From Candidatus Babelota bacterium (GTDB taxonomy: Bacteria; Babelota; Babeliae; Babelales; GCA-2401785): a DNA stretch of 33,190 nt. The stretch's first letter is position 1. Each line of letters begins with the position of its first letter. The DNA lies in assembly GCA_042576345.1 (NCBI GenBank), contig JBHPCE010000003.1, forward strand, positions 1 to 33,190, given 5' to 3'. Under the pieces are notes generated by a model, which was not told the DNA's origin, did no database searches, and saw only the letters and a list, made by a program, of their open reading frames with translations. Both the position numbers and the translations under genes were made by a program. Below, piece after piece: positions 1,317 to 14,747 of the stretch.

Positions 1317-2324
1317 ATGAAAAACAGTAACAAAACTTTAAAAATCTTGGCACTCTTTTTGTCTTTACACATTTTCACTTTTGCAATGGAGGAGGAAACG
1401 CAAACACCTCACGATGCACAAATAAAGACCATCACCCTAAAAGAGCTCGCTAAAATGGAACATCTTACCAGGCAAGGCAAGCTTCCACTAACTGTGTGTA
1501 AAGTAGAAACAGACTTTACAGGACTTCATGAGCAATTCAGAAAACTTCAAGAAAAAACACTTTTTGAAGAAGAAGAAGAAGAAGAAGAAGAAGACGACGA
1601 CGACGACAAAGAATTTAAAAATCTTGAAGCACGTTTCAAAGCTCTTCAACAAAAAAGCCCAAGGAAAAGAGAAGAAGAAGAAGACGACGACGACAACGAC
1701 GACAAAACGTGTTTTGGAATCAACAGCCTTCTTGTCCGCGTCAAAGACAACACCGTTGAACATTACAAACAAAGAATCTTTCAACCAGACTGGAGGTGGC
1801 ACACTTTAAACGCAGAGCATGGAAAACAAATCTTGATGCGCGTTATGGCAGAAATGTCAACTGAATGGGCAAAAAAGCAGATAAATAAGCATGCCCAAGA
1901 AAACAAAAATAAAAATATAGTGGAAAAATGGAAAAGGAATTTTTACAACAGCGGCAACACAGGAGAAGCAGAAACAGCATTTCACCTCACTCAAGCTGGC
2001 AGACACAAAATTATGTATGTTGCCCTTTAAAACCTTTTTTTAAAAATCACACCAACGCAAGTTTCAAGATTTCATAAAATAGCCGACAATTCGTTCTTTT
2101 CCGCACTTTCACCAGCAGAAGTTGTTGTGACCTTGCACAGGCTGCTTTTACATGTGGATGGCGCACAGCAACCTGAACGATTGAAAAGTCTATTGAGCAC
2201 AATGATGGGACTTCCAGAAGCCACAGAAATTGTAGAAAAGATGCTCGAGGAGAAAAAAGAAGAAGAATTTATGGATGTTGAAGAGGCTGAAAAAATCGTA
2301 CAAGGATTGTTGCAAGAAAAATAA
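1317..2324 (+). pseudogene. Secreted protein sharing an ~160-aa domain with the N-terminus of the giant ORF; interrupted by an in-frame TAA at 2028-2030
   Basis: GAGGAG RBS and signal-peptide-like N-terminus (MKNSNKTLKILALFLSLHIFTFA). ORFs 1317..2030 and 2127..2324 are in the same frame. Homology to the giant ORF continues across the stop: YVAL*NLFLKITPTQVSRFHKI vs YIALQNLFLEMTLRQVSRFQKI. Confidence 0.8.
1566..1607 (+). repeat. (GAA)9(GAC)5 trinucleotide tract encoding E9D5; a shorter copy lies at ~1671-1703
   Basis: Read directly from the sequence. Confidence 0.95.
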
Positions 2325-2355
2325 CAGGAAGATTGATTTTATGGGCTCACCATAA

Positions 2356-2391
2356 ATTTTACCGGCATTTTATCGGCATTTTATCGGCATT
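2356..2391. repeat. 11-bp direct repeat ATTTTAYCGGC x3, a candidate operator upstream of the wHTH gene
   Basis: attttaccggc-attttatcggc-attttatcggc-att in the 2325-2468 intergenic region, with ~one helical turn periodicity. The repeat is seen directly; the operator role is inference. Confidence 0.75.
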
Positions 2392-2468
2392 CAAGCTTAA
2401 CTTTTTCACATTTTATGGGCATAATGAGCTATCAAAATCGATGTTAAATTATTTTGAAATTCAAGCAC

Positions 2469-2792
2469 ATGAAAGAAAATTTTAAACCGATTTATGAACC
2501 AAATCAAAAAATAGCAGATTACCTCATACCCATTGAGGCGGCAAAAGAAAAATCAAAACTTATGCGAAAGCTGGACCCTAGACAACGAAAGGCTCTTGAA
2601 CTATTTATGGAGTTCGAACTTGTCACCAGCAAGCAAATTGGCGAATTGTTTGGATTCAAGCCTCGCACAAGCTCAGCATTATGCAAAAAATGGGTTGAAG
2701 CTGGATTTCTTAAGGTTGCGGACAAAAGTTTTAAAACCAGAAAATACTCCCTTGCAGACAAATTCGAAGTTCTTGTGGATACAAACCCTTGA
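2469..2792 (+). CDS. Small winged-HTH protein, probably an internally deleted Fic-family gene
   Basis: LDPRQRKALELF...VTSKQIGELFGFKPRTSSALCKKWVEAGFL...TRKYSL is a wHTH. The N-terminus FKPIYEPNQKIADYLIPIEAAKEK resembles, from memory, the start of Fic-wHTH proteins. No HPFxDGNGR motif is present. ATG 2469 is preferred over TTG 2454. Confidence 0.6.
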   Translation: MKENFKPIYEPNQKIADYLIPIEAAKEKSKLMRKLDPRQRKALELFMEFELVTSKQIGELFGFKPRTSSALCKKWVEAGFLKVADKSFKTRKYSLADKFEVLVDTNP

Positions 2793-2870
2793 GCAAAGTC
2801 ACATAAGCTGAATAAGCTTTCTGAGCAACACTTAAAGCAATGTACGTACAAAAGTTTTTGGGAGGGCTTA

Positions 2871-4337
2871 GTGAAAAATCTAAGAAATAAACACCTTGCA
2901 GTGACATCTCTGCTTTCTTCTGCCCTCCTTTTTTTATCGCCATCACTGCTCTCTTACACCCATTCGAACAAAACATTCATAATGTTGCGTCCACCTGGCC
3001 GTGAGATTCCCACAGAAAAAGTCACGTGGTATCACTCGCAGCGCAACGCCGATAACCTCAAAAATTGTTCAAAGGGCGGAGCTTTGCAAATCACCGCTTT
3101 TTACAAGAGGTCTCATGACGCCGACGACATGGGAAAATATTTTGCCATACGCGAGAAAAATACATTTAGCTACGGCGTTGGAAGCAATTTCCCATACCTT
3201 GCAACGGAAGATTTGATACACGACAACCAAGAATCGCGAGGAAATCTCACAGGCGAGCTGACAATGAAACCAACGCGAAGCATAGAAGGCCTACGGATCT
3301 CGTATTACAAAACGCTCAAGGACGGTTACTTTACCAAAGGCAATGTTCCAATTTTACGCGTCAGGCACCATCTTCACGAAAAAACAGCCAGTGAGACAAA
3401 AGTTGGAACGGCAGGACTTTTGGATCTTCTTTCTGGATCTTACTCCCACGCACTTTCTCTTGCTGACGGCGACGCACAAAGCGCCCTTGAGTACAGCAAA
3501 ATTGATGGCGAGCAAAAAGGTGATTTTGGCTTGGGCGACGTCGACCTTACGCTGGGTCGCCGACTTTTGGATGAAGAACTTTTCGACTGCTCCGTTTATG
3601 CCAGGCTCACACTTCCGACAAGCAACGAGCCAACGGGTAAATTTTTATTCGAGCCAATTCGAGGAAACGGAAAACACTGGGAACTGGGCGTTGGGCTAGA
3701 CGCCTCGTTTGACCTGTGGTCCGATGAACAGTCTCACATTGAGTTGCTTTTCAACGTTGATGTTGCATACACCTTTGCGGCAAACGAAAAACGCACATTT
3801 AACTCAAACGTGGACATCAAAGTTGTACCACCCTGGTCTCGGTACATGCTCATCGGTGAAAACGGAAAACAGGGCCTGCAGCCCTTGGCAAATATTTCTA
3901 CAATTTCAGCAAAAGTCTCACCCGGCTTTCAGAGCGAAGCAATTTTGACCGTCGGTTACCGCACAGAACACATTGCCATAGACGTTGGCTACGACATGTA
4001 CGCCAGAGAAAGCGAAACCATATCCATAAAGGATTGGACAGAAGATCGCTATGCATTCACTCATGCAACGGCATATTCCACACAGGACAACTTTTTGGAT
4101 GTCGACACGCATTATCTTTCTGGAATCGACAAAAGTACAATCGACAAGGCTGAACTGGACACAGCAGGAGCTTCCACACCAGCCAGTCTGACCCACGGCA
4201 TTTTTGCAGGTATTGGCTATCTTGCAGAAGACCGTGGACCGTTCATGGGCGGCATTGGAGCTTCTTATGAATGGGCACGAGAAAATTCGGCCGTTACATC
4301 TTTTTCTATTTGGGCCAAAGTCGGCGTAACTTTTTGA
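2871..4337 (+). CDS. Secreted protein, probable outer-membrane beta-barrel
   Basis: GGAGG RBS before the GTG, a signal peptide, many amphipathic beta-strands (GLGDVDLTLG, WELGVGLDASFDLW, IDVGYDMY, GIGASYEW) and a terminal beta-signal-like SIWAKVGVTF. Confidence 0.6.
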   Translation: MKNLRNKHLAVTSLLSSALLFLSPSLLSYTHSNKTFIMLRPPGREIPTEKVTWYHSQRNADNLKNCSKGGALQITAFYKRSHDADDMGKYFAIREKNTFSYGVGSNFPYLATEDLIHDNQESRGNLTGELTMKPTRSIEGLRISYYKTLKDGYFTKGNVPILRVRHHLHEKTASETKVGTAGLLDLLSGSYSHALSLADGDAQSALEYSKIDGEQKGDFGLGDVDLTLGRRLLDEELFDCSVYARLTLPTSNEPTGKFLFEPIRGNGKHWELGVGLDASFDLWSDEQSHIELLFNVDVAYTFAANEKRTFNSNVDIKVVPPWSRYMLIGENGKQGLQPLANISTISAKVSPGFQSEAILTVGYRTEHIAIDVGYDMYARESETISIKDWTEDRYAFTHATAYSTQDNFLDVDTHYLSGIDKSTIDKAELDTAGASTPASLTHGIFAGIGYLAEDRGPFMGGIGASYEWARENSAVTSFSIWAKVGVTF

Positions 4338-4355
4338 GATTTATAGAACACAACA

Positions 4356-5594
4356 TTAAGAAAACGCTTGTTTCAATGTTCTACGTATGTCGCGATTAAA
4401 TATTGCGCTAAACTTTTCCATAAAGCCGTTTGAGTCTGCGTATTGCTCACCGCCATCGAAAGCAGCAACCATTGAAACAAAAAACATTATAGAAAGCGGA
4501 AGGGCGAGGAAACCCATGAGCTTTATCTTTTCACGCTTGCGTTTTTTTGATAATTCTTCTTTAGACAAGCCTCTTAACTCTTTTCTCGCCTTGGCTCTTC
4601 CATTTTTTGTCATACTTTTAAAATTATAGATCAAATATCCCAAAATAGAACCAAGTCCGGCACAACAGATCCACGCAGCTGGAGACTGCATGAAATTCCA
4701 AAAATCTTTGGACTTCAAAACCTCACCTCGTTTAACAGGTTTTACGACATTTGAAGCATATGGTTCTTCTATTTTAACGGCCTTGGGAACCTCTGTATCA
4801 CTTCCACAAAATTCCCACACAGTCTTCTCTTGATCAAAAATATATTTTCTACCTTGAAATTCAAACGTCAAATTATTGTCAGCCTTAACCCAACCGAGAT
4901 CAATCAAATCTTCAGATGTAGCCTCCCTTGAACCACCATCAACAGTAAATGCAGCTCCTTTTTCAAAACGTTCAATCACCTCCTTTCCATTGAGCTTTTT
5001 TTCAATTTCTCCCCCAAAATACCCCCACAAATCACCCTCTGGGTCTTTGTAGTAGCGAGCTCCAATTCTTTCATCACTAATAAACCAAGAAACACCGCTA
5101 GCGATCTCTTGTTTTGATGATGAGGGACTTCTTCGTCTTTTGCACAACAAAGATAACCTCTTTCTGGCTCTCGCATCTCTAATAACGGCATGCATTATCT
5201 CACTATCATGCCCTGAAATAACCTCGCCAACTGCTCTGTCACCAAACTCTGAATCGCAACATTTACGCCATTTCCCGTCTGAACACCAGACAACCTTATC
5301 GTTGTTAAAATATCCCTGTAGAGTTCCGAGAAACGATGCCAAAATCGAATCCACAAGAACATCCGGGACCCTCGTCCGACTCGACTTAACAGATTCTAGG
5401 ATATCTGCGATTTTTAAAACAGCATCCCTTGCTCTATTTTCCTCCAGAATACGTTGATCTCTTCGAGATCCAAGTGGTTTACCCATATCATCAACCAAAA
5501 CAAATTCATCTCCAGGATTATACATAGCCAGCAAAGAATTGCTCAGGCTGCACAATGTCAAAAATATTGATGTATACAAAAAAAACGCTTTCAT
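4356..5594 (-). CDS. Hypothetical secreted protein with two C-terminal TM segments; related to the adjacent 682-aa protein
   Basis: Likely start ATG 5594 (MKAFFLYTSIFLTLCSLSNSLLA, signal peptide), 4 nt after the upstream stop. Contains YYKDPEGDLW and KYIFDQEKTVW motifs. Two hydrophobic segments are separated by a basic linker. Confidence 0.7.
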   Translation of the reverse strand: MKAFFLYTSIFLTLCSLSNSLLAMYNPGDEFVLVDDMGKPLGSRRDQRILEENRARDAVLKIADILESVKSSRTRVPDVLVDSILASFLGTLQGYFNNDKVVWCSDGKWRKCCDSEFGDRAVGEVISGHDSEIMHAVIRDARARKRLSLLCKRRRSPSSSKQEIASGVSWFISDERIGARYYKDPEGDLWGYFGGEIEKKLNGKEVIERFEKGAAFTVDGGSREATSEDLIDLGWVKADNNLTFEFQGRKYIFDQEKTVWEFCGSDTEVPKAVKIEEPYASNVVKPVKRGEVLKSKDFWNFMQSPAAWICCAGLGSILGYLIYNFKSMTKNGRAKARKELRGLSKEELSKKRKREKIKLMGFLALPLSIMFFVSMVAAFDGGEQYADSNGFMEKFSAIFNRDIRRTLKQAFS

Positions 5595-5598
5595 TGAC

Positions 5599-7647
5599 CT
5601 ATCCACGCCATGGCTCCCCGAAATCCCACTTTTGGTCAAAAGGAATTTTCCTCAAAACTCCCACAAGAGCTACCATTCCGGACAATGTTATAGAAACTCT
5701 CTTTGCAAAACTCATATTTAAGTACATCTCACGCTTAACACCTTCAAATGACGGATTTCGAAAACCTTTTTTTATTAACCGTTTTTTTGCGTTGTAGTAT
5801 TCATTAAGTAGAAGAAAAGACGCAACAGTGGCACCTCCACATAAAGCTAGCGTAGATCTATTATTGAAAAACAACCAGAACAGCTTTTTAGGTAGCTTTT
5901 TCATTTCGAAATAATCTTCAGATTCCTTCTCATGATCAACAGCACTGTCGTCATCTACTCCTACCTCGTCTTCAACTCCTATCTCAGAATCATCCTCAGA
6001 GCTACTATCAACTTCTTCATCATGGCCGAAATGAAACCGGCTATCTACATGATCGTCGGGAAAAGCTCCCTCCCTTGCCCGATCAAAATCCACACTAGAA
6101 TCACTCTCACTCACATGTTCCGGCGGCGTTACATGTGAAGTAGGCTCCATATGAGGTATACCCTCCTCTTCATTGTAAAGATCCGGGGACCGTCTAGGGG
6201 AAACCAAATGCGTTAGATGTGAAAACGGTTTTATAGGGAGAATAGATAATCTACGAACATCTTGTGCGATTAACGCTCTCTTAACCCACTCATCGGTATT
6301 GTTATCCTCATCTCTCCATTTCAAATCATCAGCCTCAGGCAATCTAAACTCTTTCGGAATCCATCGACGGATTTCTGAATACCTCGAACTAGGTTTTCCT
6401 GAGCTCGATTTATCTTCTCTTTTTTCAGATCTTTCTCTTGATAAAATAAGCCTCTGAAATTCGTCCATCAAACTACCAGCCTCATGGTCAGAAAGTTTCT
6501 CAAACGAGCTTGATTCACCATAGTAAGGCAGGTGACTAAAATCCTCCTTCTTCCACAACACATCATCTGGATCACGATAATATTTATTCCCGTTATGCGT
6601 AAAAAAAAGAAAGTCGGAATCTTCCCTTCCCAAAATTTGATCGTCCGTCGAAGACTTCAAATCGCTTTCACAAAAAGCAACTCTTGCTCGTTCCTTCCGT
6701 AAAATATCAACACCACTCCCGTACAAACTACACGAATCTGAAGAAAAATTTTTTCCAAAATGGTCTGTACACCACACATCTCCATCTTTGTCAAAAAAGT
6801 ATCTTCCAGCCCCCAGAAATAAAGAAAACCCTTTCGCCCTTGGGAACGAAAGCTCTGTGTCTGAAAATATTTGTTCAGATTTTAATAATTCGCTATGTAA
6901 CTCCATGTTACGACGCTCATCTTCAATAAACTCTTTAATATCTTTTGGGCTAGCAGGTTTAAAAGGACCTCCACGGGAAGATCGCTTCCACCATGTACCA
7001 TTTTTTGGATTCTCACTGTTCAAAAAAAGTTGAAAAACTTGTCCACCACCTCTTTCTTCAATCACCTTTGGTCCAACATATGGCATAATACACGAATCCA
7101 AAATCGCATCTGGAACCTTTTCCCAATTAGCAGAGATATCATCTCGAATATTTTCTAAGGTGAAAAACTCCTTGCGTGAAACACCAAATCTTGTAATTGA
7201 CTCGAAATACTCTTTTATTTTCTGTTGTTCCTTAGCGGTTTCCTGAATATTTTTGGCTTCTTCTTCCGAAACACTCTTCCATGCACTACGCATACCAGTT
7301 TGCTGAAAAAAATAAAACTCTCCATTCCATTTAATTAGTCTAGGTTTTTGGAGTCCTTTTTTCGGTTCCCACAACTCTGTCTCGACAATTCCTCCAACTT
7401 TCTTAGAAAAAACCAAATCTGAAAAAATCCCATGTGTGGCTACCTCTTCTGAATATGCATCTTCTCCTAAATCACCTGTGCTTCTAATAAACTCTTCATT
7501 ATCAAATCTCCAAGAAATACCCCCAAGATCCACAGTTTGGCCGGCCCTAAGATCTTTAATGTAGCTATCTACATGCTCAAAAAGTTGACCTTGCGACCAT
7601 AGCCCCGGCGCAAGAAGCGACAATAAAATAATAGCCTTAACATTCAC
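5599..7647 (-). CDS. Hypothetical secreted protein with repeated beta-hairpin motifs, an acidic linker and two C-terminal hydrophobic segments
   Basis: 682-aa ORF with signal peptide MNVKAIILLSLLAPGLWS, motifs RYFFDKDGDVW and KYYRDPDDVLW, and a D/E/S-rich tract before the hydrophobic C-terminus. Confidence 0.75.
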   Translation of the reverse strand: MNVKAIILLSLLAPGLWSQGQLFEHVDSYIKDLRAGQTVDLGGISWRFDNEEFIRSTGDLGEDAYSEEVATHGIFSDLVFSKKVGGIVETELWEPKKGLQKPRLIKWNGEFYFFQQTGMRSAWKSVSEEEAKNIQETAKEQQKIKEYFESITRFGVSRKEFFTLENIRDDISANWEKVPDAILDSCIMPYVGPKVIEERGGGQVFQLFLNSENPKNGTWWKRSSRGGPFKPASPKDIKEFIEDERRNMELHSELLKSEQIFSDTELSFPRAKGFSLFLGAGRYFFDKDGDVWCTDHFGKNFSSDSCSLYGSGVDILRKERARVAFCESDLKSSTDDQILGREDSDFLFFTHNGNKYYRDPDDVLWKKEDFSHLPYYGESSSFEKLSDHEAGSLMDEFQRLILSRERSEKREDKSSSGKPSSRYSEIRRWIPKEFRLPEADDLKWRDEDNNTDEWVKRALIAQDVRRLSILPIKPFSHLTHLVSPRRSPDLYNEEEGIPHMEPTSHVTPPEHVSESDSSVDFDRAREGAFPDDHVDSRFHFGHDEEVDSSSEDDSEIGVEDEVGVDDDSAVDHEKESEDYFEMKKLPKKLFWLFFNNRSTLALCGGATVASFLLLNEYYNAKKRLIKKGFRNPSFEGVKREMYLNMSFAKRVSITLSGMVALVGVLRKIPFDQKWDFGEPWRG

Positions 7648-7690
7648 CTAAAACCCCTTTCGCAAAATACATTATTAAAAGTATGGCGAG

Positions 7691-7718
7691 AGTTTAAAAA
7701 AATATATTTTTTTGTAAA
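7691..7718 (-). promoter_or_regulatory. Possible sigma70 promoter TTTACA-N16-TAAACT overlapping an 18-bp palindrome (A7-TATA-T7, 7696-7713)
   Basis: The minus strand reads tttaca-aaaaaatatatttttt-taaact, ~45 nt upstream of the 7647 start. The AT-rich context makes chance matches likely. Confidence 0.3.
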
Positions 7719-7738
7719 GAAGAAATTTTAGAAACCTG

Positions 7739-9421
7739 CTACTGGACCATGAAAAAATTGTTTTCAAAGTCCCAGGTCACAAAAGCCATCTCAGGACTGT
7801 ACCATTTTTCAGAAATCGTTATCAAAACATCAAAAGCACGGCCATTTTTACTCTTTAAAACCTCCAGAGTTCCCATGGTAAACGAAAACTTCCTCCCAAA
7901 CGGGTCGTGCGTACAAATCCATATTTTTTCCGGAGTATCTATTGAAATTCGTACTTTCTTACCATCAATACTGATATCAATTTTAGCGTCACTAGGCACT
8001 TTAAGCTCTTCTAGCGCTGTATGTATCTCTTTGCAGCAAACGTTCATCTGTGGATCGTGGTACACAGGATCCGCGTCATCCTTACGATAGATCCAAACAG
8101 CTTGTGCAGCCCCGGGACATGGAATCAACTCCTTTGGCACACCCACAAAGCAAATTGGTCTTCCCAAAAGCCTCTTATCTTCGGCCAAAGCTTTGAAAAC
8201 GTTATCAACAGAAACAAAGTACCTTTCTCTCGCCTTCGTACTTTCCATACAAAATATAAATCCGGCAACCAAGATCGTAATCCAATATCCACAAAAAATC
8301 ATTCGATTTTCGTACCACTTAAATCGACGTACAGAAGCCATACCAAGGCCAACGGCAGCTACCAAAAAAGGAATCCCTAGGTATAAATACCTTGCTTGAT
8401 GTGTAATTAAAATTGCTGGCCAAGAAAAAAATAAAAATCCAGAACCAATAAAAATCATATCCCTTTTACGATTTGATTTTACAAAAACATAAAGAATCCA
8501 GCTCAAAACTGCCAACACCAAAAGGCTTTTTGAAAATCTGTTTCCACCTGGAACAAAGGACAAACCCAAAGCGTCCACAACGAGAGTGACAAGGTCAAAA
8601 AACCGAAAACTCAACCTGTGCAAAAAATCCAAAGGCCTTAAAAGCATGTAATCAGAATTTGACGCGAGCGGGTACACCAAAAGTCTGAAAAACAAATTGA
8701 TTGCCACCACACCAAAGTAAGGCATTGAAACAAACAAAGATTTAACGACATTTTTCTTGATCGGCCAAATATCGCTGTCAAAATAAAATGGTAGCATACA
8801 AAAAAGCCACACCGGAAAAACGATTGTCGCTTCATGAACAAAAAGCACAATCGCAAAACACAAAATCGAAAAAATATACCAAAAAACACGTTTCTCATTA
8901 AAAAAACGTCTCAAAAACAAAATTGAAAGCCCAAGACCAAGAAAAGCCACGCTGTAGGTCTGCATAACAAATCTGCCTATAAACATCCCCATCATCGGAT
9001 AAACAACAAAAACCATAGACCCAAAAAAAGCGAACAAAAGAGGCATTATGAGAGATAAAATATAAAACAGCAAGGCCCCACAAGCCGAATGAAGCGCCAT
9101 AGAAACCAGAAAGTACGCATGAGGATTATTAGGACCAAAAAAATAAACTTCTGCTGCATACATCACCAACGCAAGCGGCCTGTACATAACTCCAAAAAAC
9201 GTCCACTCTGTGTCATCACGCATGTTTGAAGGTAAAATTGAGCGATCGTTAGGATTCGTTGTGAAAAAATCGGCAATATCCGAAACCGACTTTATGCTAC
9301 CGGCATGAACCGCACCGTAATCGTCGTCAAAAAAACGCCAATCTTTGTACGGAACTGTCCAGTAAAGGAATGAAATGCAAAAAACAAGACTCGCAATAAA
9401 AAACCGTTTGAGCATAACCAA
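7739..9421 (-). CDS. Polytopic GT-C-fold glycosyltransferase (ArnT/PMT/TMTC/GtrII-like)
   Basis: About 10-12 TM segments, an acidic DDD motif after TM1 (FFDDDYG), a YRPL motif, RYLY near the last TMs and a soluble C-terminal domain. Confidence 0.75.
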   Translation of the reverse strand: MVMLKRFFIASLVFCISFLYWTVPYKDWRFFDDDYGAVHAGSIKSVSDIADFFTTNPNDRSILPSNMRDDTEWTFFGVMYRPLALVMYAAEVYFFGPNNPHAYFLVSMALHSACGALLFYILSLIMPLLFAFFGSMVFVVYPMMGMFIGRFVMQTYSVAFLGLGLSILFLRRFFNEKRVFWYIFSILCFAIVLFVHEATIVFPVWLFCMLPFYFDSDIWPIKKNVVKSLFVSMPYFGVVAINLFFRLLVYPLASNSDYMLLRPLDFLHRLSFRFFDLVTLVVDALGLSFVPGGNRFSKSLLVLAVLSWILYVFVKSNRKRDMIFIGSGFLFFSWPAILITHQARYLYLGIPFLVAAVGLGMASVRRFKWYENRMIFCGYWITILVAGFIFCMESTKARERYFVSVDNVFKALAEDKRLLGRPICFVGVPKELIPCPGAAQAVWIYRKDDADPVYHDPQMNVCCKEIHTALEELKVPSDAKIDISIDGKKVRISIDTPEKIWICTHDPFGRKFSFTMGTLEVLKSKNGRAFDVLITISEKWYSPEMAFVTWDFENNFFMVQ

Positions 9422-9485
9422 CCCTCTTCCACATAAAAAAAGATGTTATACCCAGTAAAAGCCAAATATCTCCATTACACAACCG

Positions 9486-12400
9486 CTATTTTTTCTTTTC
9501 CTCTTTCTTCTCTTCCACTGGGTTAACATTGGTAAGTGTGTAAAGTATTAAATTGATGCCTTCGCGATCAAGGCGTCCCCCAGGTTGCTCTTTAGATTTA
9601 TTTTTTGAGTTCATGACGACCACGGAGTAGCTGTCATTATTTTTCGTAAAGCTAGCCGTGTACCAGTGACCTCCTTCGAAGATGATGGCGACAACAGGTG
9701 TTCCTGCATGGAATGATTTTAAGATTTGGGCGTATTGGGTGATGACTCCAAAATTGGTTATCATTTGGGCGGATGGTGTGGGTTTAGCCAGGATGAATGA
9801 AAGACCTGTGCTTTGATTTACGTTTCCAATTTCAACAAAAAATAATCTTTCATTTTCTTTAAGTTCAAAGTGAATCATTTGTTTCTGTAAGGCTTCCTTG
9901 TTAGCCATCCAAATTGGTTTCACTTCAAACCCTTTAAGTTCCGCCCATGAGGATTGTCCTTTATGTTCATTCAAAAGCAGCCGTGCCTGATAAAGTGCGT
10001 GAGTTCCGCATGTTTCCATGTTATCGCCCTGGTATGGTACAGGGAGTTGAGTGGCGGTGTATTTAGGAGTTTGAAGTTGTTTTTGATTTGCGCCTGTACC
10101 AAGCGCCATTGTTGAAACTTCAATTGATTTGAGACCGAGATTAAGAGCTGTGGGCATAATTTGTCGTTGTGGCCAGTGTACCATGTTGTGATCCAGGAAG
10201 AGCATCACGGCATAGCCATCTGTGCGAAAATCTAAATCTTGGTACTGACTTCCATCCCAGTGATAAAGCTTTGTGCCGTTCGTTGACATTTTGACAGAGG
10301 TTGCAGGGTGGTTGCCTCTTGGCTTGAGCATTGGAACTTGGAAGTAATAGTGGCCATGAAGTTGTGCAAAATCTTTGAAATTGAAGTGTGGTAGGGAGTT
10401 CACACTGAGAGTTTCTCTAAGACTCCCTCGGTCTTGTGCATTTCCAAAAAGTTGTGCTAGGTGTTGATCGTTATAATCTTGAAAGTTTTTCTTTTGTCCT
10501 GAATTGTCTGTGAACCATTTTTTCAAATTCTCTGTTTGAACTGCAGAGATCGATTTTTCTATAACTTGGAGGTTGTCTGGTGTGGCTTTTGCGGAAAGGT
10601 TTTTCTTCTGACTATGGCTATAGACACTTTTCGCATTGTCATCTCCTGTTCTCCGAATTTCCAGAATTCCATCCTGTCTAAGGTTCACATGGACACCACC
10701 AGCGTCAAAAGACCATTTTCCTGGTTGTTTTTTTGCAGAAAAGTCGTTGAATGTTGGGGCAAACGAGAGGTTGTTTGTTGTTGATACTATTTTCAGTGCG
10801 TTTTCAAGAAGTTGTTGTTCTTGTGCTTGAGGTTGAGGCTGCTGAGGTTGTGGTTGGGGCTGCTGAGGTTGTTGCTGTTGCTGTTGTTCTTGTGGCTGTT
10901 GTTGCTGTTGCGGAGCGGGTGGTTTCTTTCCTTTAACTCCAACGGTTTTTCTTTTCAGTATTGCGAGGGTTTCTGGTGATAGTTTGCCGAGGATGGTTAA
11001 ATTTTCTTCCCATTGCTGTGATTTGTGTATTTCTCCACTGGCCAGGTAAACAACTACTTGATCCTCATCATCATAAAAATGAACTGTTTTACTTTCTCCG
11101 TTGAATCTCCAGTCTCCTGGTTTGCTCATTTGTTCCAGCACCTTATTTGCCCAGCTTTTGTGCCTTTCGATGAATTTTTCTACAATCGTTAGCTCAAATT
11201 TTTTCAGATCTATAATATTTATATCCAAAATTGGGTCTTGGCTTAGGTCCTTGCCAGCAAAAACGACCTCTGCCCTTGTATTATTAGGATTGGTGAGTCT
11301 GTATATTTGTAGTGAATAATCTTCTTCAAGGTTGACATATATTTTCTGTCTATCATACCACCAGGTATTCCTTGTTGTGTTATTTTTTTTCGGCTGTGAA
11401 CTGATTACAATTCGTAATGCATTTGATAATAGATGTTTATCACGTTTTTCCTGAGTCAAATATTGAACTTTCCCTTGTATTGCTTTTTTGAAAGATTTGC
11501 TAAGATTTAATGAGTATTCTGTGTCGAGTATTTTATTGTCTATTGATGACACATTTGTTACGTTTTTATATGTGTGGTAAATTTTACTACAATCGTTAAT
11601 TTTTATTACAAATACTGTTGGCATCTTACTTAATTTAGGAATTTTAATCATGAAGTAAGAGGAGTCGGATGCAGTATGCCAGTCTTTAAGAGGTTCCTCT
11701 GGTTTGAGATTGTGGGTGTGTGGATGAGCAATTGAAATTGTGTATAAAGTCCTTCTTATTAAATCAGTGAACTCTTGTCGTATAAAATTTGCGAATGCTT
11801 GTTGCATCGCTTTCAATTCTTGTGAAGGATTTTTTTGTTCCATGTTGAGTTCTTGCCAATTTCCACTGGTGGAAGTACTGTATTGAAATATTGGAAACAT
11901 CGAATACCTCATGATTGTACTTAGAGGAATTCTCATTTTATCTTTTACAATGTGAAGGTACATATCAGTAAAATACAGGCTATTTACTAATGACAATCCC
12001 TGAAAATGTGAATACTTACTTGCTTCAAGTGTTTTAGTGGCATCTTTTAAAATTTGTTTGAGTTTCTCCGTTTGCTCTGCATGTGGTTTTTGCTTCTTAT
12101 AAGGGGTGATTTGAAATTCTGTTTTTATGCCAGTTTCTGGCGCCCATTCTTCTTCTTCTTCTTTCTTTTTTTCTTCTTTTTTAGGCTTCTTTTCTTTTTC
12201 TTCTTTAAAATGCAGAAATTTTCCTCTAATAAAAAAGTATCCAGATTCCCACCAGTTTTTATGTAGCGTAATGCCGGTATCACTGAACTCTGGCCATGAG
12301 CCTTGTGATTTTGTTGAAACAAAAACTTTTCCATCATTCACACTGATTTTGTAGTGATAATCTTCTGACTTGTGGGCTACGATGATGTGGCCGCTTGTTA

Positions 12401-14747
12401 CATATCTACCTGTAATCATCACCTGGCCTTTTTGAAGTTCTTTATGATCTGAAACTGTGACTAGCTTATCGGTTTTGGTGCTTGCGAGTTGGATGAGGCA
12501 GTGTCGTAGACGAGGGGCGTGATTATCACCGTGTGGAGTCAGTTTTTCAAGTAATCCTTTGAATGTGGTATCATCAAGTGCTTTTTTTGTATCGATCCAT
12601 TTGTAATCACTACCAGGAGGTGTTTTTGCGTACACCATTATAGCTTTTGTTGCTAAATTTGCGTAAAACATTTCATAATTTTCTACTTCCACTACTACGG
12701 ATGATCGTTCCTCTTTCTTTAAATAGGAAGTTCTCCATTGCGGAAATTGGTCTTTAATGCTTCCATCTTGCTGGTACGTGATGCTTTCGAATGAACTAAC
12801 TGCTTCAGCAAAATATTTTTCTTCCTGAGTTGGTGGTCTTTTGGGTTGAGGCGGAGATTTGGGTTGAGACCCGGGCGAAGGTTGTGGCTGTGGTTGTGTG
12901 CCAAATTTTGCAGTTCCGCATATTTGGCACGTATTATTACCTGAAGGATTTATGAAGGTACATGCTGAACAAGCCCAACGGAATGCGGCTGCCGAGCCAG
13001 ATATTGTTTTTTCTATACCCCCGAGAGTTTCATCAGCGACCGTGATTTGAAGTTCTCGAGAACTTGAGCCTTTAATGTGAAAAACTTTTCCTCGTCGGGC
13101 TGAGCTTGATCTATGGATTGCAATAATGCTACTGTCTTCAAGTTTTACATGAACTCCATATTTATCGTACGACCATGTGCCTGGCGCAGCTTTTTGTCCG
13201 AAAGCTCCAAAAGTATGATATTCTACAAGTTTATTTCGATCATTAAATATTGCTGATGATTTTCCAATGAGTTCTTGATCTGTTTCTTCTTTCGATTTTG
13301 GCACTAGTGGAGATTTAGGTTTAGGTTTGGCTCGTTCCACAGCTCTTATGTTGGTTTCGATTGTTTTAAGTTGTTCTTTAGTGGCTAGTGTGGTTAAGGT
13401 GACCGGTTGTGAGTATTCTTGTTGGCCTAAACTTTTATGTTTTGCAACCAATCCGGCATTTTTGTTGTCAGAAAAGTTTCTTTCAATCGACACAACAGTT
13501 GTATCGCTAACTTTTGCGAGAAATTGTGTGGCGTTGTAGCTCCAGTTCGAAATTTTTTCTTGAAACAAATCTTGTGCGCTTTTATATCCCTGAATTAAAT
13601 TATTTTGATTTGAAGAATGTTGAACTGCTTGTGTAATGAGGTCTTTTTCATATTTTTCAATTGCGGTTTTGATGCTTGAAGATTGTTGGTCTGTTGCCTT
13701 TATATTTTGTCGATTTATAAAGAAAACAATTGATTTGCTATAGCTTCCTAACGGTGCTAGAGACATGGAAACCATATTGCCGGATGTAAGTTTTGCATGT
13801 ACGAAGTTGCCAGCATATGTCCATTGAGAGTTTTGAAGTTGGTCTTTTGTTGCCCACTCTTGCATATTTTTGTTGTTTGAAATGATGCTAATTGCTTCTT
13901 GGATCATCAATTGTTGCGGTTGCTGAGGAACTGGAACAGCAGGCTCGTCAGGCACCACAGCTGGCTCGTCAGGAACCACAGCAGGCTCGTCAGATTCTGG
14001 GTGTTCTCGTTCTTTCTTTGTACTTTTTTCGCGCTTCAGTTTTGCTTCCTCTGGTGGTGGTTGGCCTGGGCCGGGTGGTGGTTTTTTTTGCACAGCGGTT
14101 AGAATTTGATCGATGTTGGGAATTTGTGTTGCGCCAGTGATGTAAGAAAGAAGTCTGCTCAGGGTTACAACAACTTCGGCTGGTGGAAGTGCAGAGAAAA
14201 ACGATGTGCCTTCAATTTTTTGGAATCTTGAAACCTGCCGTAATGTCATCTCTAAAAAAAGATTTTGTAGGGCAATGTAAAGTATTTCTTGTCCACCAAT
14301 CGTAGTACTGTGAAACACTGGTTTTTCTTCTTCGGTTGAACCACTCTGAAAAAATTTAGTTTTCCATTGCTTCACAAGATTTTGCTGTGTTTTATCTTCT
14401 GCGTGGGCTTTGATTTGCTCTGTTGCCAGTGCAATGGACATTTCTGCCATGATGCGCATCAAAATTTGTTTTCCGTGTTCTTCATTTAAGGTGTGCCACC
14501 TCCAATCTGGTTGGAAAATTCTTTTTTTGTAGTGTTCGACGGTGTTTTGTTCACCGACACGGACGAGAAAATCGTTGATTCCGATGTATGTGTGGCCATC
14601 TTCAACTTTGTGTGTGAGTGTGAAGTTGCTTTTGCGGACGCTGGCCTCAAGTTGTCCAGGGTCCACTACAGATGCGCCTTGCGCTGTAAAGAATTTTATG
14701 GTGAGTGACAAGGTTAGGATTATGATTTTTATAGTTTTATTTGCCAT
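9486..14747 (-). CDS. Giant secreted modular protein (putative effector): shared N-terminal domain, ~95-aa repeats, NZF zinc finger and a C-terminal Josephin-like cysteine protease
   Basis: Likely start ATG 14747 (MANKTIKIIILTLSLTIKFFTAQG, signal peptide); the ORF track starts at TTG 14798. Contains WACSACTFINPSGNNTCQICGT, C-terminal YQGDNMETCGTHAL...GGHWYTA...VVVMNS, and P/Q-rich linkers. Confidence 0.85.
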   Translation of the reverse strand: MANKTIKIIILTLSLTIKFFTAQGASVVDPGQLEASVRKSNFTLTHKVEDGHTYIGINDFLVRVGEQNTVEHYKKRIFQPDWRWHTLNEEHGKQILMRIMAEMSIALATEQIKAHAEDKTQQNLVKQWKTKFFQSGSTEEEKPVFHSTTIGGQEILYIALQNLFLEMTLRQVSRFQKIEGTSFFSALPPAEVVVTLSRLLSYITGATQIPNIDQILTAVQKKPPPGPGQPPPEEAKLKREKSTKKEREHPESDEPAVVPDEPAVVPDEPAVPVPQQPQQLMIQEAISIISNNKNMQEWATKDQLQNSQWTYAGNFVHAKLTSGNMVSMSLAPLGSYSKSIVFFINRQNIKATDQQSSSIKTAIEKYEKDLITQAVQHSSNQNNLIQGYKSAQDLFQEKISNWSYNATQFLAKVSDTTVVSIERNFSDNKNAGLVAKHKSLGQQEYSQPVTLTTLATKEQLKTIETNIRAVERAKPKPKSPLVPKSKEETDQELIGKSSAIFNDRNKLVEYHTFGAFGQKAAPGTWSYDKYGVHVKLEDSSIIAIHRSSSARRGKVFHIKGSSSRELQITVADETLGGIEKTISGSAAAFRWACSACTFINPSGNNTCQICGTAKFGTQPQPQPSPGSQPKSPPQPKRPPTQEEKYFAEAVSSFESITYQQDGSIKDQFPQWRTSYLKKEERSSVVVEVENYEMFYANLATKAIMVYAKTPPGSDYKWIDTKKALDDTTFKGLLEKLTPHGDNHAPRLRHCLIQLASTKTDKLVTVSDHKELQKGQVMITGRYVTSGHIIVAHKSEDYHYKISVNDGKVFVSTKSQGSWPEFSDTGITLHKNWWESGYFFIRGKFLHFKEEKEKKPKKEEKKKEEEEEWAPETGIKTEFQITPYKKQKPHAEQTEKLKQILKDATKTLEASKYSHFQGLSLVNSLYFTDMYLHIVKDKMRIPLSTIMRYSMFPIFQYSTSTSGNWQELNMEQKNPSQELKAMQQAFANFIRQEFTDLIRRTLYTISIAHPHTHNLKPEEPLKDWHTASDSSYFMIKIPKLSKMPTVFVIKINDCSKIYHTYKNVTNVSSIDNKILDTEYSLNLSKSFKKAIQGKVQYLTQEKRDKHLLSNALRIVISSQPKKNNTTRNTWWYDRQKIYVNLEEDYSLQIYRLTNPNNTRAEVVFAGKDLSQDPILDINIIDLKKFELTIVEKFIERHKSWANKVLEQMSKPGDWRFNGESKTVHFYDDEDQVVVYLASGEIHKSQQWEENLTILGKLSPETLAILKRKTVGVKGKKPPAPQQQQQPQEQQQQQQPQQPQPQPQQPQPQAQEQQLLENALKIVSTTNNLSFAPTFNDFSAKKQPGKWSFDAGGVHVNLRQDGILEIRRTGDDNAKSVYSHSQKKNLSAKATPDNLQVIEKSISAVQTENLKKWFTDNSGQKKNFQDYNDQHLAQLFGNAQDRGSLRETLSVNSLPHFNFKDFAQLHGHYYFQVPMLKPRGNHPATSVKMSTNGTKLYHWDGSQYQDLDFRTDGYAVMLFLDHNMVHWPQRQIMPTALNLGLKSIEVSTMALGTGANQKQLQTPKYTATQLPVPYQGDNMETCGTHALYQARLLLNEHKGQSSWAELKGFEVKPIWMANKEALQKQMIHFELKENERLFFVEIGNVNQSTGLSFILAKPTPSAQMITNFGVITQYAQILKSFHAGTPVVAIIFEGGHWYTASFTKNNDSYSVVVMNSKNKSKEQPGGRLDREGINLILYTLTNVNPVEEKKEEKKK
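9520..10050 (-). other. Josephin-like papain-fold protease domain (putative deubiquitinase)
   Basis: Q-x6-C-x2-H-x-L (Cys codon 10008-10010), HW (His codon 9666-9668) and NS (Asn codon 9609-9611) occur in the same order as Josephin Q..C.xHxL / HW / NS. Confidence 0.6.
10805..10920 (-). repeat. Low-complexity poly-Q/P linker (CAA/CAG/CCT-rich)
   Basis: Encodes PAPQQQQQPQEQQQQQQPQQPQPQPQQPQPQAQEQQ. Confidence 0.85.
12912..12977 (-). other. RanBP2/NZF-type C4 zinc finger with the TF/hydrophobic ubiquitin-binding signature
   Basis: Exact match to W-x-C-x2-C-T-F-x-N-x6-C-x-I-C. Confidence 0.85.
13931..13995 (-). repeat. 21-bp tandem repeat x~3 encoding (DEPAVVP)n
   Basis: SDEPAVVPDEPAVVPDEPAVPVP; ggctcgtcag recurs every 21 nt. 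Confidence 0.9.

Follow-up and report, generated by a model that had tools for sequence, protein, structure and literature searches.

Candidate exported, modular, effector-like proteins sharing an N-terminal head domain in a Babelota genome

Two genes on opposite strands of one contig from a Candidatus Babelota bacterium share a domain behind similar N-termini and differ downstream of it, raising the question of what this domain does and what kind of proteins it heads. The window analysed here is the whole of that contig (C3; JBHPCE010000003.1, 33,190 nt) of assembly GCA_042576345.1, which is 62% complete, and absences within the genome are to be read accordingly. The reading we favour, with our confidence evenly poised between acceptance and doubt, is that the locus encodes modular, effector-like proteins of one paralogous, lineage-specific family, exported through Sec and directed at the host. 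The features on which the argument draws are collected in Table 1.

Table 1. Features of the window, with positions counted from its first nucleotide.
Feature	Position	Strand	Basis or remark
3' part of macro gene, 431 codons, open at 5' end	3..1298	+	ORF cut by contig start
Short copy as translatable, 237 aa, P0005 in protein database	1317..2030	+	ORF
Head domain, short copy	1698..2204	+	HMM E 1.9e-81; TAA inside, domain spans stop codon
In-frame TAA, CAA (Gln) in long copy	2028..2030	+	codon alignment; one-base C-to-T difference
Post-stop continuation, same frame, last third of head domain and acidic helical tail	2031..2324	+	HMM E 5.9e-21, profile positions 114-168
Long gene, 1753 aa, P0002	9486..14747	-	ORF
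C-terminal papain-fold cysteine peptidase domain, predicted DUB/UbL protease	9489..10139	-	motifs, weak fold matches
Scaffold module 5	10479..10835	-	leave-one-out E 1.7e-17
Scaffold module 4, most divergent	11118..11456	-	leave-one-out E 0.004
RanBP2/NZF-type zinc finger (W-x-C-x2-C-T-F-x-N-x6-C-x2-C)	12903..12980	-	PF00641 E 8.4e-5
Scaffold module 3, end running into zinc finger	12921..13274	-	leave-one-out E 3.1e-13
Scaffold module 2	13275..13640	-	
Scaffold module 1 (helix, W-x-Y...V-H-x-K-L...I-x-R strands, helix)	13641..13928	-	leave-one-out value inflated
Head domain, long copy	14082..14600	-	HMM E 1.7e-81; residues 50-222 of P0002
Signal-peptide-like N-terminus, long protein (MANKTIKIIILTLSLTIKFFTAQG...)	14676..14747	-	hydropathy

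The head domain and its four copies

A preliminary description of the window had noticed a repeated domain at about 1713-2190 (+) and 14135-14590 (-). Our HMM recovered it in both places with the slightly wider boundaries of Table 1, and the two copies are identical at 99 of 170 residues (58%; BLASTP, E 7e-63), whereas beyond this head domain no segments of the short and long proteins align by BLASTP except the signal peptide, at E 0.063. Two further copies lie in tandem on another contig of the same genome, C21 (tblastn E down to 3.9e-12; HMM E 2.9e-77 and 5.4e-70), so that the genome holds four head-domain genes and the domain is not confined to the window pair. The four proteins measure 237 (truncated), 418, 598 and 1753 aa, with the domain at residues 50-222 of the longest and 74-237, 54-228 and 128-237 of the others. 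They follow a common layout of signal-peptide-like N-terminus, variable linker, head domain of about 170 aa, low-complexity linkers and downstream parts that differ from one protein to the next, in keeping with the earlier statement that the domain heads proteins with different C-terminal parts. In all four, no other folded unit comes between the signal peptide and the head.

The two window genes start with similar basic-then-hydrophobic stretches, MKNSNKTLKILALF... and MANKTIKIIILTL..., which are identical at 11 of 22 positions (BLASTP). According to a hydropathy check, each of the four proteins has a basic n-region and a hydrophobic h-region and no further TM-like segment; in the long protein, the first 10 residues include two K/R and the maximum 12-residue hydropathy of 2.32 is reached from residue 6. 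These values fit the similar signal peptides described earlier for both genes, here as predictions. After Sec export the proteins would presumably leave the cell; the genome has two secretin matches, both on contig C10. For Chromulinavorax destructans, a cultured member of the Dependentiae, the published description reports signal peptides in 44% of CDS, with ORFans and putative effectors enriched among them, and proposes Sec and vesicles as delivery routes (PMC6561590).

The AF2 model of the long copy (pLDDT 80.1, pTM 0.75) runs through four strands, two helices, five strands and two helices. By this model the head domain is a folded, mixed alpha/beta unit whose halves look like duplicates of one 'beta-meander plus helix' unit. 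When the first beta-meander was made into a sub-HMM, this matched the second half of the head domain of P0003 itself (E 0.015) and a partial ORF neighbouring on C21 (domain E 0.13, whole-sequence E 0.019), both sub-threshold and the top two such matches among 3772 ORFs; the first unit also recurs weakly at residues 337-371 of P0004 (HMM domain 2, conditional E 0.0019). As the preliminary description had it, the domain is unrecognised: Pfam and Atlas returned no match, fold searches gave none above noise, and in these searches it resembled no known binding domain. Where a polymorphic family to be tabulated across Dependentiae had been envisaged, the head domain was found in one of 261 genomes of the phylum and in 4 of 1,835,955,588 representative proteins, all four from this genome, and a scan of genome contigs gave no match. 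That the family is known from a single 62%-complete assembly counts against the favoured reading.

Against the long copy, identity of the C21 paralogs is just 23-25%, with conserved positions mainly in the core, and the residues invariant in all four domains are mostly core-type hydrophobics. Residues of this type would suit a docking surface, but equally a module whose role is structural alone. For the window pair, the differences in DNA had been judged by eye to be largely synonymous, which is only partly right: synonymous sites are saturated (pS 0.62, dS about 1.3), dN is 0.25 before the stop codon of the short copy, omega is about 0.19 before it (110 codons) and about 0.25 after it (45 codons), and nucleotide identity is 65% over 196 aligned codons. 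The head domain has evolved under purifying selection, at an omega of about 0.2.

We suggest that, at the N-terminus of the mature protein, the head domain may serve all family members as a docking module; export or anchoring at the bacterial envelope would be its most likely role, judged solely by its fixed position directly behind the signal peptide. A more specific version, which follows the preliminary description, makes it a dedicated export or translocation signal of the TPS-like or polymorphic-toxin trafficking kind and has it define a polymorphic effector family with exchangeable tips (DUB, macro) on a shared scaffold; this appears unlikely to us. The constant position in four of four members and the differing downstream parts agree with it, as does a protease domain that is mobile among three genes; yet an enzyme tip can be demonstrated in one member alone, a search of the 62%-complete genome for a TpsB/ShlB-type transporter gave none, the predicted fold is unlike the beta-helix of the TPS domain, conservation among the paralogs lies mainly in the core, and the family is known from one genome alone.

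The interrupted short copy and the neighbouring macro gene

The short copy had been described as almost stand-alone. It is instead interrupted by the in-frame TAA, which turns ...YIALQNLFL... of the long copy into ...YVAL*NLFL..., and the product, consisting of a signal-peptide-like N-terminus, an acidic E/D-rich linker and the first two thirds of the head domain, stops mid-domain at residue 237. Perfect repeats, (GAA)x9.7 at 1566-1594 and (GAC)x5 at 1593-1607, lie within the linker, and a strong Shine-Dalgarno-like GAGGAG is placed 7-12 nt upstream of the ATG. TAA ends more genes in this genome than any other stop codon (146 of 294 ORFs of at least 300 aa), and we therefore take it as a true stop. 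The frame nevertheless remains open and homologous for 97 more codons, a length over which 0.05% of mononucleotide shuffles stay open, and among the 45 residues that follow the stop 31 match those of the long copy. No ATG, GTG or TTG with a ribosome-binding site lies nearby after the stop, the first in-frame ATG being at about 2205.

Because a single TAA, the main stop codon, stands against CAA and the frame behind it is open and conserved, the short copy is probably no adaptor but either a relic that lost its function recently or a truncated product, in agreement with the relic proposed earlier as one option. That it is functional, either as a 237-aa adaptor or competitor or as an intact gene of 336 codons in which the TAA reflects a misassembly or a strain polymorphism, strikes us as rather unlikely. 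The GAGGAG and a post-stop frame as conserved as the part before it would suit a working gene, but the stop interrupts the predicted fold within its second sheet, between strands, uses the genome's standard codon and has no start codon with a ribosome-binding site close behind it.

Upstream of the short copy, at a distance of 18 nt and on the same strand, lies the 5'-truncated macro gene; as contig and window are one and the same, its N-terminus falls outside both. The macro domain reported here earlier was recovered: a MacroD-like domain at about nt 774-1124 (ORF residues 258-374) matches PF01661 at E 9.1e-11 and 42.2 bits, against a cut-off of 22, with human MACROD2 as the nearest solved chain (E 2e-4). 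The accompanying claim that this gene and the long one have similar modules found no support, as phmmer over the 3772 genome ORFs of 60 aa or more found no similarity between the macro ORF and the long protein. At the end of C21, a 3'-truncated ORF with a signal-peptide-like start bears a weak resemblance to the head domain and could be the missing N-terminus of the macro gene. Together with the position of the macro gene directly upstream of the short copy, this would favour the head as an export signal with exchangeable tips; the link is weak, however, as the two contig ends do not overlap and the resemblance reaches HMM E 0.16 and hhalign P 0.012.

The long protein, its scaffold and its C-terminal protease domain

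The long protein, put at about 1750 aa before and at 1753 aa here, begins with the signal peptide and the head domain and goes on with linkers rich in Pro and Gln, five scaffold modules, an NZF finger, other stretches without assignment and a C-terminal cysteine peptidase domain. Leave-one-out values for modules 1 and 2 are inflated because seed windows overlapped. The module, of about 120 aa, is as private to this genome as the head domain. The zinc finger scores 22.2 bits, under the PF00641 cut-off of 27, with its Cys4 pattern read directly in the sequence, and its T-F...I residues presumably constitute a ubiquitin-binding signature.

In a genome of the same genus (G076), the syntenic site lacks the long gene: an epimerase gene (53% identical) is followed there, after 61 nt, by a membrane-protein gene (55% identical). 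This fits recent lineage-specific expansion and would also suit a reading in which the head has no separate role, being the slowest-evolving beta-meander/helix pair of a fast-evolving surface or adhesin-like repeat family, with the short copy as a decaying duplicate. The internal duplication in the head, the weak recurrence in P0004 and the restriction of the whole family, scaffold modules included, to one genome point the same way. We nonetheless hold this to be improbable, given that profile-profile comparison finds no relationship between the head domain and the W-x-Y scaffold module (probability 0.08%) and that the window pair is far more alike in the head (58%) than elsewhere in both proteins.

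The DUB-like protease with which the long protein was said to end stands as a papain-fold-like domain with Cys, His-Trp and Asn-Ser (Q-G-D-x4-C-G...G-G-H-W...N-S; Cys/His/Asn), but fold matches are weak and no curated family fits. The model is of moderate confidence (pLDDT 71.3). Among the structural matches listed, most are papain-fold cysteine peptidases, including several bacterial and viral DUBs, and CE-clan effectors, among them PopP2, CidB DUB, SseL and RickCE, make up most of the top Foldseek rows; none of these values rises out of the noise (Z <= 5.0, Foldseek E >= 0.055). The domain has no sequence match to any solved chain and reaches no Pfam cut-off; the best curated score, 18.8 bits for Peptidase_C48 against a cut-off of 20.7, belongs to one distant relative and not to the window's own domain, a distant relative from G162 matched the His/Asp half of PF02902 (E 0.0016), and an hhalign comparison with three of the phylum's C48 domains was not significant (P 0.065).

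G-H-W is invariant in six of six aligned protease domains and, by eye, also present in P0006 and P0007. PMC7391069 reports a 477-fold enrichment of the His-[FYW] motif among DUBs and Gly-Gly UbL proteases; within the CE clan, the motif does not separate DUBs from acetyltransferases. The invariant His-Trp 'gatekeeper' supports a candidate DUB or UbL protease, yet no curated family fits. Such a domain would act on host proteins and strip them of ubiquitin or a ubiquitin-like modifier, and the NZF finger may assist the long protein in binding ubiquitin.

Two paralogs of the protease domain, on contigs C4 and C19, are both without a head domain, so that the domain occurs in three genes of this genome and is mobile between architectures; weak matches are found in 3 other genomes of the phylum. 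The C4 paralog has six calmodulin-binding IQ motifs (PF00612, E 4.8e-33). It also contains a zinc-finger-like CxxC...CxxC stretch, read by eye and not reported by Pfam. The proposal of interchangeable PTM-eraser tips accordingly finds no support: a demonstrable enzyme tip is present in just one of four members, the protease sits in two headless genes as well, and the macro protein is at most a possible carrier of a head domain.

The eukaryote-directed downstream domains (NZF, DUB-like protease, IQ motifs in the protease paralog), together with a head that is compact, folded and under purifying selection, would also agree with a head that targets or localises the protein in the host, bringing downstream modules to the same membrane, organelle or protein while the signal peptide alone governs export. 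This, too, we consider unlikely, as the head shows no similarity to known binding domains and a targeting module would not need the strict N-terminal position seen in all members.

Comparison with known systems

TpsA exoproteins and CdiA-type polymorphic toxins consist of a signal peptide, an N-terminal TPS domain, long repeats and a variable C-terminal tip. The favoured family of effector-like proteins shares this order of parts, from signal peptide through N-terminal domain and repetitive scaffold to variable end. It differs in its predicted alpha/beta head without Pfam match, in the missing ShlB/TpsB match in the 62%-complete genome, and in tips that are directed at eukaryotes instead of being antibacterial toxins, with no immunity gene evident.

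The H-W...D/N-S and Q-x-x-x-x-(D/T)-C-G elements of the protease domain, which we take to match C48 motifs, show their likeness when set beside canonical C48 domains of the phylum. CE-clan effector proteases (SseL, RickCE, ChlaDUB, CidB, YopJ/PopP2) resemble the domain in these motifs, in the His-Trp gatekeeper and in filling the top Foldseek rows; they differ in that the CE clan (Ulp1/Peptidase_C48-like) has the order His-Asp-Cys, whereas here Cys is N-terminal to His, the order of papain (CA clan). DUBs with Cys before His, namely the Josephin-like clippases BpJOS and PcJOS, viral-tegument-like DUBs, herpesvirus M48 and TssM, share Gln...Cys...His-aromatic...Asn/Asp, and their structural rows cover most of the domain at Z 3.7-4.6, the noise range for the tool.

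The putatively host-directed tips on which the favoured reading draws comprise the NZF finger, the DUB-like protease, the IQ motifs of the protease paralog on C4 and the macro domain next door to the short copy. The last resembles MacroD-type proteins such as human MACROD2 in its Pfam Macro match and nearest solved sequence, and differs in lying C-terminally in a larger protein.

Also comparable is C. destructans, whose description, in the passages considered, highlights ankyrin-repeat proteins and secreted hydrolases and mentions no head domain, W-x-Y module or protease of this type, but which likewise combines a small host-dependent genome with many Sec-signal proteins without relatives and with eukaryote-like interaction domains (PMC6561590). 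The family is real, seen in one genome alone, and ordinary in kind: lineage-specific, secreted and effector-like.

Head-domain copies, scaffold modules and fold

The locus codes for part of a lineage-specific family of modular proteins, predicted to be exported by Sec, that combine a new, folded and selectively constrained head domain with a private scaffold module, and one member of the family carries predicted ubiquitin-directed parts. All data derive from an assembly of 766,731 bases in 57 contigs with an estimated completeness of 61.8%, of which the window is all of contig C3. The preliminary description had read the locus as an exported effector family with interchangeable PTM-eraser tips, and both gene starts that it had assigned, those of the short and the long copy, were borne out. 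When the short gene was read through an internal stop and compared with the long protein using BLASTP, the domain that had been described as repeated in the two genes showed 99 identities over 170 positions (E 7e-63), and the HMM located it in both. Together, the BLASTP and HMM matches of the two window copies show that the repeat is real and far beyond chance. The N-terminal hydrophobic segments of the two copies are also alike (11 of 22 residues identical, E 0.063 in BLASTP).

Using tblastn and the HMM, we found two further copies in tandem on contig C21 of the same genome, in P0003 (418 aa) and P0004 (598 aa), whose head domains are 23-25% identical to that of the long copy and in neither of which any Pfam family was matched. 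Four copies thus exist instead of only the two in the window, all of them in one genome. The domain occupies residues 50-222, 74-237, 54-228 and 128-237 in the four proteins and is the first folded unit behind a basic-then-hydrophobic N-terminus in every one of them. A simple hydropathy and charge check found the Sec signal-peptide pattern (basic n-region, 10-15-residue hydrophobic h-region, polar c-region), with cleavage as a prediction only, in 4/4 members, and hydropathy gave no second TM-like segment in any of them. Across the phylum, the HMM detected the head domain in one of 261 genomes, the source genome, and not in the same-genus genome, which is 68% complete; among 1,835,955,588 representative proteins it was present in four, all from the source genome. 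Among 797 candidates of a word-indexed search of proteins of 973-3098 aa, for which residues 40-260 of the long copy served as query, the query protein was the sole match; a scan of genome contigs with the head domain produced 120 pattern matches of which none was confirmed, and the ESM Atlas gave no usable match. Since the domain was not found outside the source genome, the tabulation of C-terminal domains across Dependentiae that the preliminary description had envisaged was impossible.

The scaffold module, a W-x-Y repeat unit of ~110-125 aa with five copies in the long protein and one in P0004, consists of a helix, strands with W-x-Y...V-H-V-K-L...I-x-R and a helix with L..IE..I. Leave-one-out HMM searches scaled to 3772 ORFs recovered four of the six copies with E values of 3.1e-13, 1.7e-17, 3.9e-6 and 0.004, and the values of the remaining two seeds are inflated because these overlap each other. 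Like the head domain, the module was found in 1/261 phylum genomes, the source genome. That the two are the same unit was unsupported (hhalign probability 0.08%). Both specific domains, head and scaffold, are new and currently confined to one incomplete assembly. Low-complexity DNA encodes two linkers of the long protein: a 21-bp tandem repeat (x2.8) yields PDEPAVV repeats directly after the head domain, and imperfect CAG/CAA-type repeats yield a poly-Gln/Pro stretch before scaffold module 5.

An AlphaFold2 (AF2) monomer model of the head domain, which had been proposed as a check and was built on the four-row alignment, reached a pLDDT of 80.1 and a pTM of 0.75, with four strands, two helices, five strands and two helices in this order; the invariant columns of the alignment are mainly core residues. 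The homodimer prediction scored 0.01, which speaks neither for nor against a dimer. Foldseek against the PDB returned no match at E <= 0.001, with weak rows including PUR-alpha and MRP1/2 (E ~0.1, TM 0.15-0.18), while the best hit of an exhaustive (wide) VIA search had Z 5.3 and that of a second look was PURA over 54 residues (Z 4.1). As all Foldseek and VIA scores lie within the stated noise of the tool, we left the fold unassigned; the PUR/Whirly-like beta-beta-beta-beta-alpha resemblance, with PURA at Z 4.1 and a Foldseek E of ~0.1, belongs to the same noise range. A sub-HMM of the first beta-meander had its best three matches among 3772 ORFs, all sub-threshold, in the C-terminal half of the head domain of P0003 itself (E 0.015), in a partial ORF located at the C21 contig edge (domain E 0.13, whole-sequence E 0.019) and in an internal P0004 segment (E 1.1). 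This pattern suggests that the head domain arose when a "beta-meander plus helix" unit, which recurs in the family, was duplicated internally.

Positions of features in the window (contig C3) and at related loci
Feature	Position	Strand	Remarks
Macro-domain gene, 5'-truncated	C3:1-1298	+	ORF 3-1298
Short copy (P0005)	C3: from 1317	+	
GAA and GAC arrays of short copy	C3:1566-1607 and 1670-1705	+	acidic linker
Head domain, short copy (HMM)	C3:1698-2204	+	
In-frame TAA of short copy	C3:2028-2030	+	
Next TAA in the same frame	C3:2322-2324	+	
11-bp repeat	C3:2356-2391	+	spacer downstream of short copy
488-aa ORF	C3:2871-4337	+	
Orphan ORF, first	C3:4356-5639	-	
Orphan ORF, second	C3:5599-7647	-	
Long copy (P0002)	C3:9486-14747	-	1753 aa
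Peptidase domain	C3:9489-10139	-	last ~220 residues of P0002; motifs Q-G-D-x4-C-G...G-G-H-W...N-S
CAG/CAA-type repeats	C3:10827-10911	-	
21-bp tandem repeat	C3:13936-13993	-	
Head domain, long copy (HMM)	C3:14082-14600	-	
TPR-repeat ORFs	C3:25457-32670	-	eight consecutive ORFs
Partial ORF	C21:1-765	-	255 codons, 3'-truncated
Peptidase paralog (L009)	C4:12806-15043	+	745-codon ORF; signal peptide, protease, six IQ motifs, C-terminal hydrophobic segments
Empty site for long gene (L101)	G076:C40, 11011-13798		three tandem membrane-protein paralogs present instead

The interrupted short copy and the truncated macro-domain gene

The short copy carries an in-frame TAA, missed in the preliminary description, at the position of a CAA (Gln) codon of the long copy within the conserved ...Y(V/I)AL-Q-NLFL... 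stretch; the translatable product has 237 aa (P0005 in the protein database) and ends mid-domain. Beyond this stop the frame remains open for 97 more codons, which only 0.05% of mononucleotide-shuffled versions of the segment achieve, and it is identical to the long copy at 31 of its first 45 residues. Of the 294 ORFs in the genome with at least 300 aa, 146 end in TAA, its commonest stop, by which recoding of the short-copy TAA is excluded and stop-codon REASSIGNMENT is ruled out. Given that TAA is a true stop and that the frame behind it is open and conserved, the stop would either have arisen very recently or be an artefact of the assembly or the strain, and the most likely status of the short copy is that of a newly disrupted relic. 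We also computed dN/dS by the Nei-Gojobori method and obtained an omega of ~0.19 over the 110 domain codons before the stop and ~0.25 after it. The earlier impression that the DNA differences are largely synonymous holds only in part; the synonymous sites between the window copies are saturated (pS 0.62). Saturated synonymous sites together with a low omega point to an old duplication, with purifying selection on both copies for most of the time since. A promoter and terminator scan around the short copy remained at shuffle level, with five promoter-like sites versus 3.5 +/- 1.6 and no terminators. The acidic linker of the short copy (E9D5, E4D4NDD) is encoded by perfect (GAA)x9.7 and (GAC)x5 arrays, which are in frame and could vary in length, and the spacer downstream contains the 11-bp unit ATTTTATCGGC repeated x3.3.

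The ORF at the start of C3 contains a Macro domain (PF01661, residues 258-374; 42.2 bits versus a gathering score of 22, E 9.1e-11), in which VNASN and ALGAGVY, read by eye, presumably represent the macro signature motifs. Its closest solved sequence is MACROD2 (E 2e-4), a similarity that would fit either an ADP-ribose hydrolase ("eraser") or a domain that only binds ADP-ribose. The macro ORF has no detectable similarity to the long protein; its N-terminus lies off the contig and was not found in a metagenome scan with the ORF. A partial ORF runs off the start of C21 directly downstream of the P0003 and P0004 genes, in the orientation that would lead on into the beginning of C3. It contains a signal-peptide-like segment and weakly resembles the head domain (HMM E 0.16, hhalign P 0.012, sub-HMM whole-sequence E 0.019), values that are only suggestive of a fifth family member. 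The partial ORF and the macro ORF may be one gene; no sequence overlap exists between the ends of C21 and C3, and their join is for this reason put forward as a hypothesis only.

Probable zinc finger and predicted C-terminal peptidase of the long protein

The long protein contains a probable RanBP2/NZF-type finger with a clear W-x-C-x2-C-x3-N-x6-C-x2-C pattern (PF00641, E 8.4e-5, 22.2 bits and thus under the cut-off of 27), the T-F...I residues of which may represent the ubiquitin-binding NZF signature. Its C-terminal domain has two paralogs in the same genome, one on contig C4 and one, an ORF of 1247 codons, on contig C19, and the head domain is missing from both. The IQ calmodulin-binding motifs of the C4 paralog match PF00612 (E 4.8e-33), and a zinc-finger-like CxxC...CxxC stretch was read by eye in the same protein, whose domain combination is strikingly eukaryote-like. 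Weak relatives of the peptidase domain were found in three other phylum genomes (4/261 in total), and a word-indexed search for longer proteins with this domain returned P0002 and the database proteins P0006 and P0007 only (3 of 6732 candidates).

G-H-W is invariant in all six aligned peptidase domains and recurs in P0006 and P0007, which places an aromatic residue directly after the catalytic His, the gatekeeper criterion given by Hermanns et al. 2020 (PMC7391069). That paper reports a 477-fold enrichment of this feature among DUBs and Gly-Gly UbL proteases, notes that the His-aromatic motif does not separate DUBs from CE-clan acetyltransferases, and describes the fold of the CE clan as papain-like with a circular permutation. 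An AF2 model of the domain is of moderate quality (pLDDT 71.3, pTM 0.76). Foldseek returned no match to it at E <= 0.001, its top rows being mostly the CE-clan effectors PopP2, CidB DUB, SseL, RickCE and AvrA; most rows listed by VIA are papain-fold cysteine peptidases, several DUBs among them, and none exceeds Z 5.0, while a PDB sequence search gave a single chance-level row (E 0.23). Motifs and model together indicate a papain-fold Cys/His/Asn peptidase, probably a DUB or a UbL protease.

Peptidase_C48 of the CE clan was considered as its family. The window peptidase, its relatives at loci L006, L007 and L008, P0006 and P0007 have H-W...D/N-S and Q..x..(D/T)-C-G motifs that resemble Ulp1/C48, and the Cys motif resembles that of C48 when set beside the canonical C48 domains of the phylum. 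C48 enzymes have the order His, Asp/Asn, (Gln), Cys, whereas here the Cys motif precedes His: in the six aligned domains, P0006 and P0007, Q...C-G lies ~110-250 residues N-terminal of G-H-W...[N/D]-S, and no conserved Cys follows N/D-S. Pfam matched Peptidase_C48 in one of the six members (E 0.0011) and no family in the window's own domain; the one matching member, a distant relative from the phylum genome G162, aligned with the His/Asp half of Peptidase_C48 (PF02902) at E 0.0016 with 18.8 bits versus a gathering cut-off of 20.7, P0006 and P0007 showed no match to it, and an hhalign comparison with three canonical C48 domains from the phylum was not significant (P 0.065). The residue order that defines C48 is absent and its gathering score is not reached; membership was rejected, and the peptidase was left without a family assignment. 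From its motifs, the peptidase family may consist of CE-like enzymes whose catalytic residues are ordered as in papain. This small family, in which a His-Trp gatekeeper and C48-like motifs in papain order occur together with NZF and IQ partners, is a candidate new type of DUB or UbL protease and the most tangible experimental lead.

Genomic context, export and relation to known systems

The long gene lies between an epimerase gene and a gene for a polytopic membrane protein, whose orthologs in the same-genus genome G076 (53% and 55% identical, respectively) are 61 nt apart with nothing between them. Its absence from this syntenic site implies a gain in the source lineage or a loss in the G076 lineage. 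Elsewhere in the window, eight ORFs of 215-712 aa all match TPR-repeat models (NCBIfam) and form a tandem paralog expansion. The 488-aa ORF has a signal-peptide-like start, a C-terminal ...VGVTF and the look of an outer-membrane beta-barrel, matches no Pfam or NCBIfam family and has three paralogs in the genome (two on contig C1, one on contig C35; phmmer E 4e-43 to 2e-28). The two orphan ORFs that follow have signal-peptide-like N-termini, repeated short Y-x-x-D...W hairpin-like motifs, weak mutual similarity (E 0.017) and no Pfam family, and close to the C-terminus of the first lies a TM-like segment.

Dependentiae are widespread protist parasites, and we know of no established route by which they deliver proteins into their hosts. 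A fixed head domain behind a signal peptide, joined to a ubiquitin-directed tip, would offer a concrete construct for tests of export and host targeting. The source genome has two secretin matches and, at 61.8% completeness, no match to a ShlB/TpsB-type transporter (ShlB/FhaC, PF03865). A TPS domain is a right-handed beta-helix; the head domain was rejected as such, since its AF2 model shows two short beta-meanders, each followed by helices (four in total), and it has no Pfam match. In the cultured Dependentiae member Chromulinavorax destructans, signal peptides occur on 44% of CDS, a set with an excess of ORFans and putative effectors for which Sec export and vesicles have been proposed as routes (PMC6561590); a signal peptide on an orphan sequence is therefore the norm of the phylum and no special mark. 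That the head domain serves export or translocation and is joined to exchangeable eraser tips is a possible reading, drawn from its position and from a single enzyme-tipped member. A bolder version, in which the head domain would dock to an undescribed route that carries large Sec-exported proteins over the outer membrane and displays enzyme tips to the host, the macro member would be split between C21 and C3 in a five-gene tandem array and the peptidase would be an un-permuted, Ulp1/C48-like link between clans CE and CA, strikes us as improbable.

The reach of the finding is limited because all members are known from one incomplete assembly and neither the head domain nor the scaffold module has relatives elsewhere. 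Polymorphic toxin and effector systems combine one trafficking domain with alternative enzymatic tips across many loci or strains; the present family comprises four members in one genome, with differing downstream parts and one enzyme tip, and the searches returned no relatives from other genomes for comparison. Its kind is already known: it is one of the orphan, secreted, effector-like paralog families of host-dependent bacteria in which eukaryote-like domains are shuffled.
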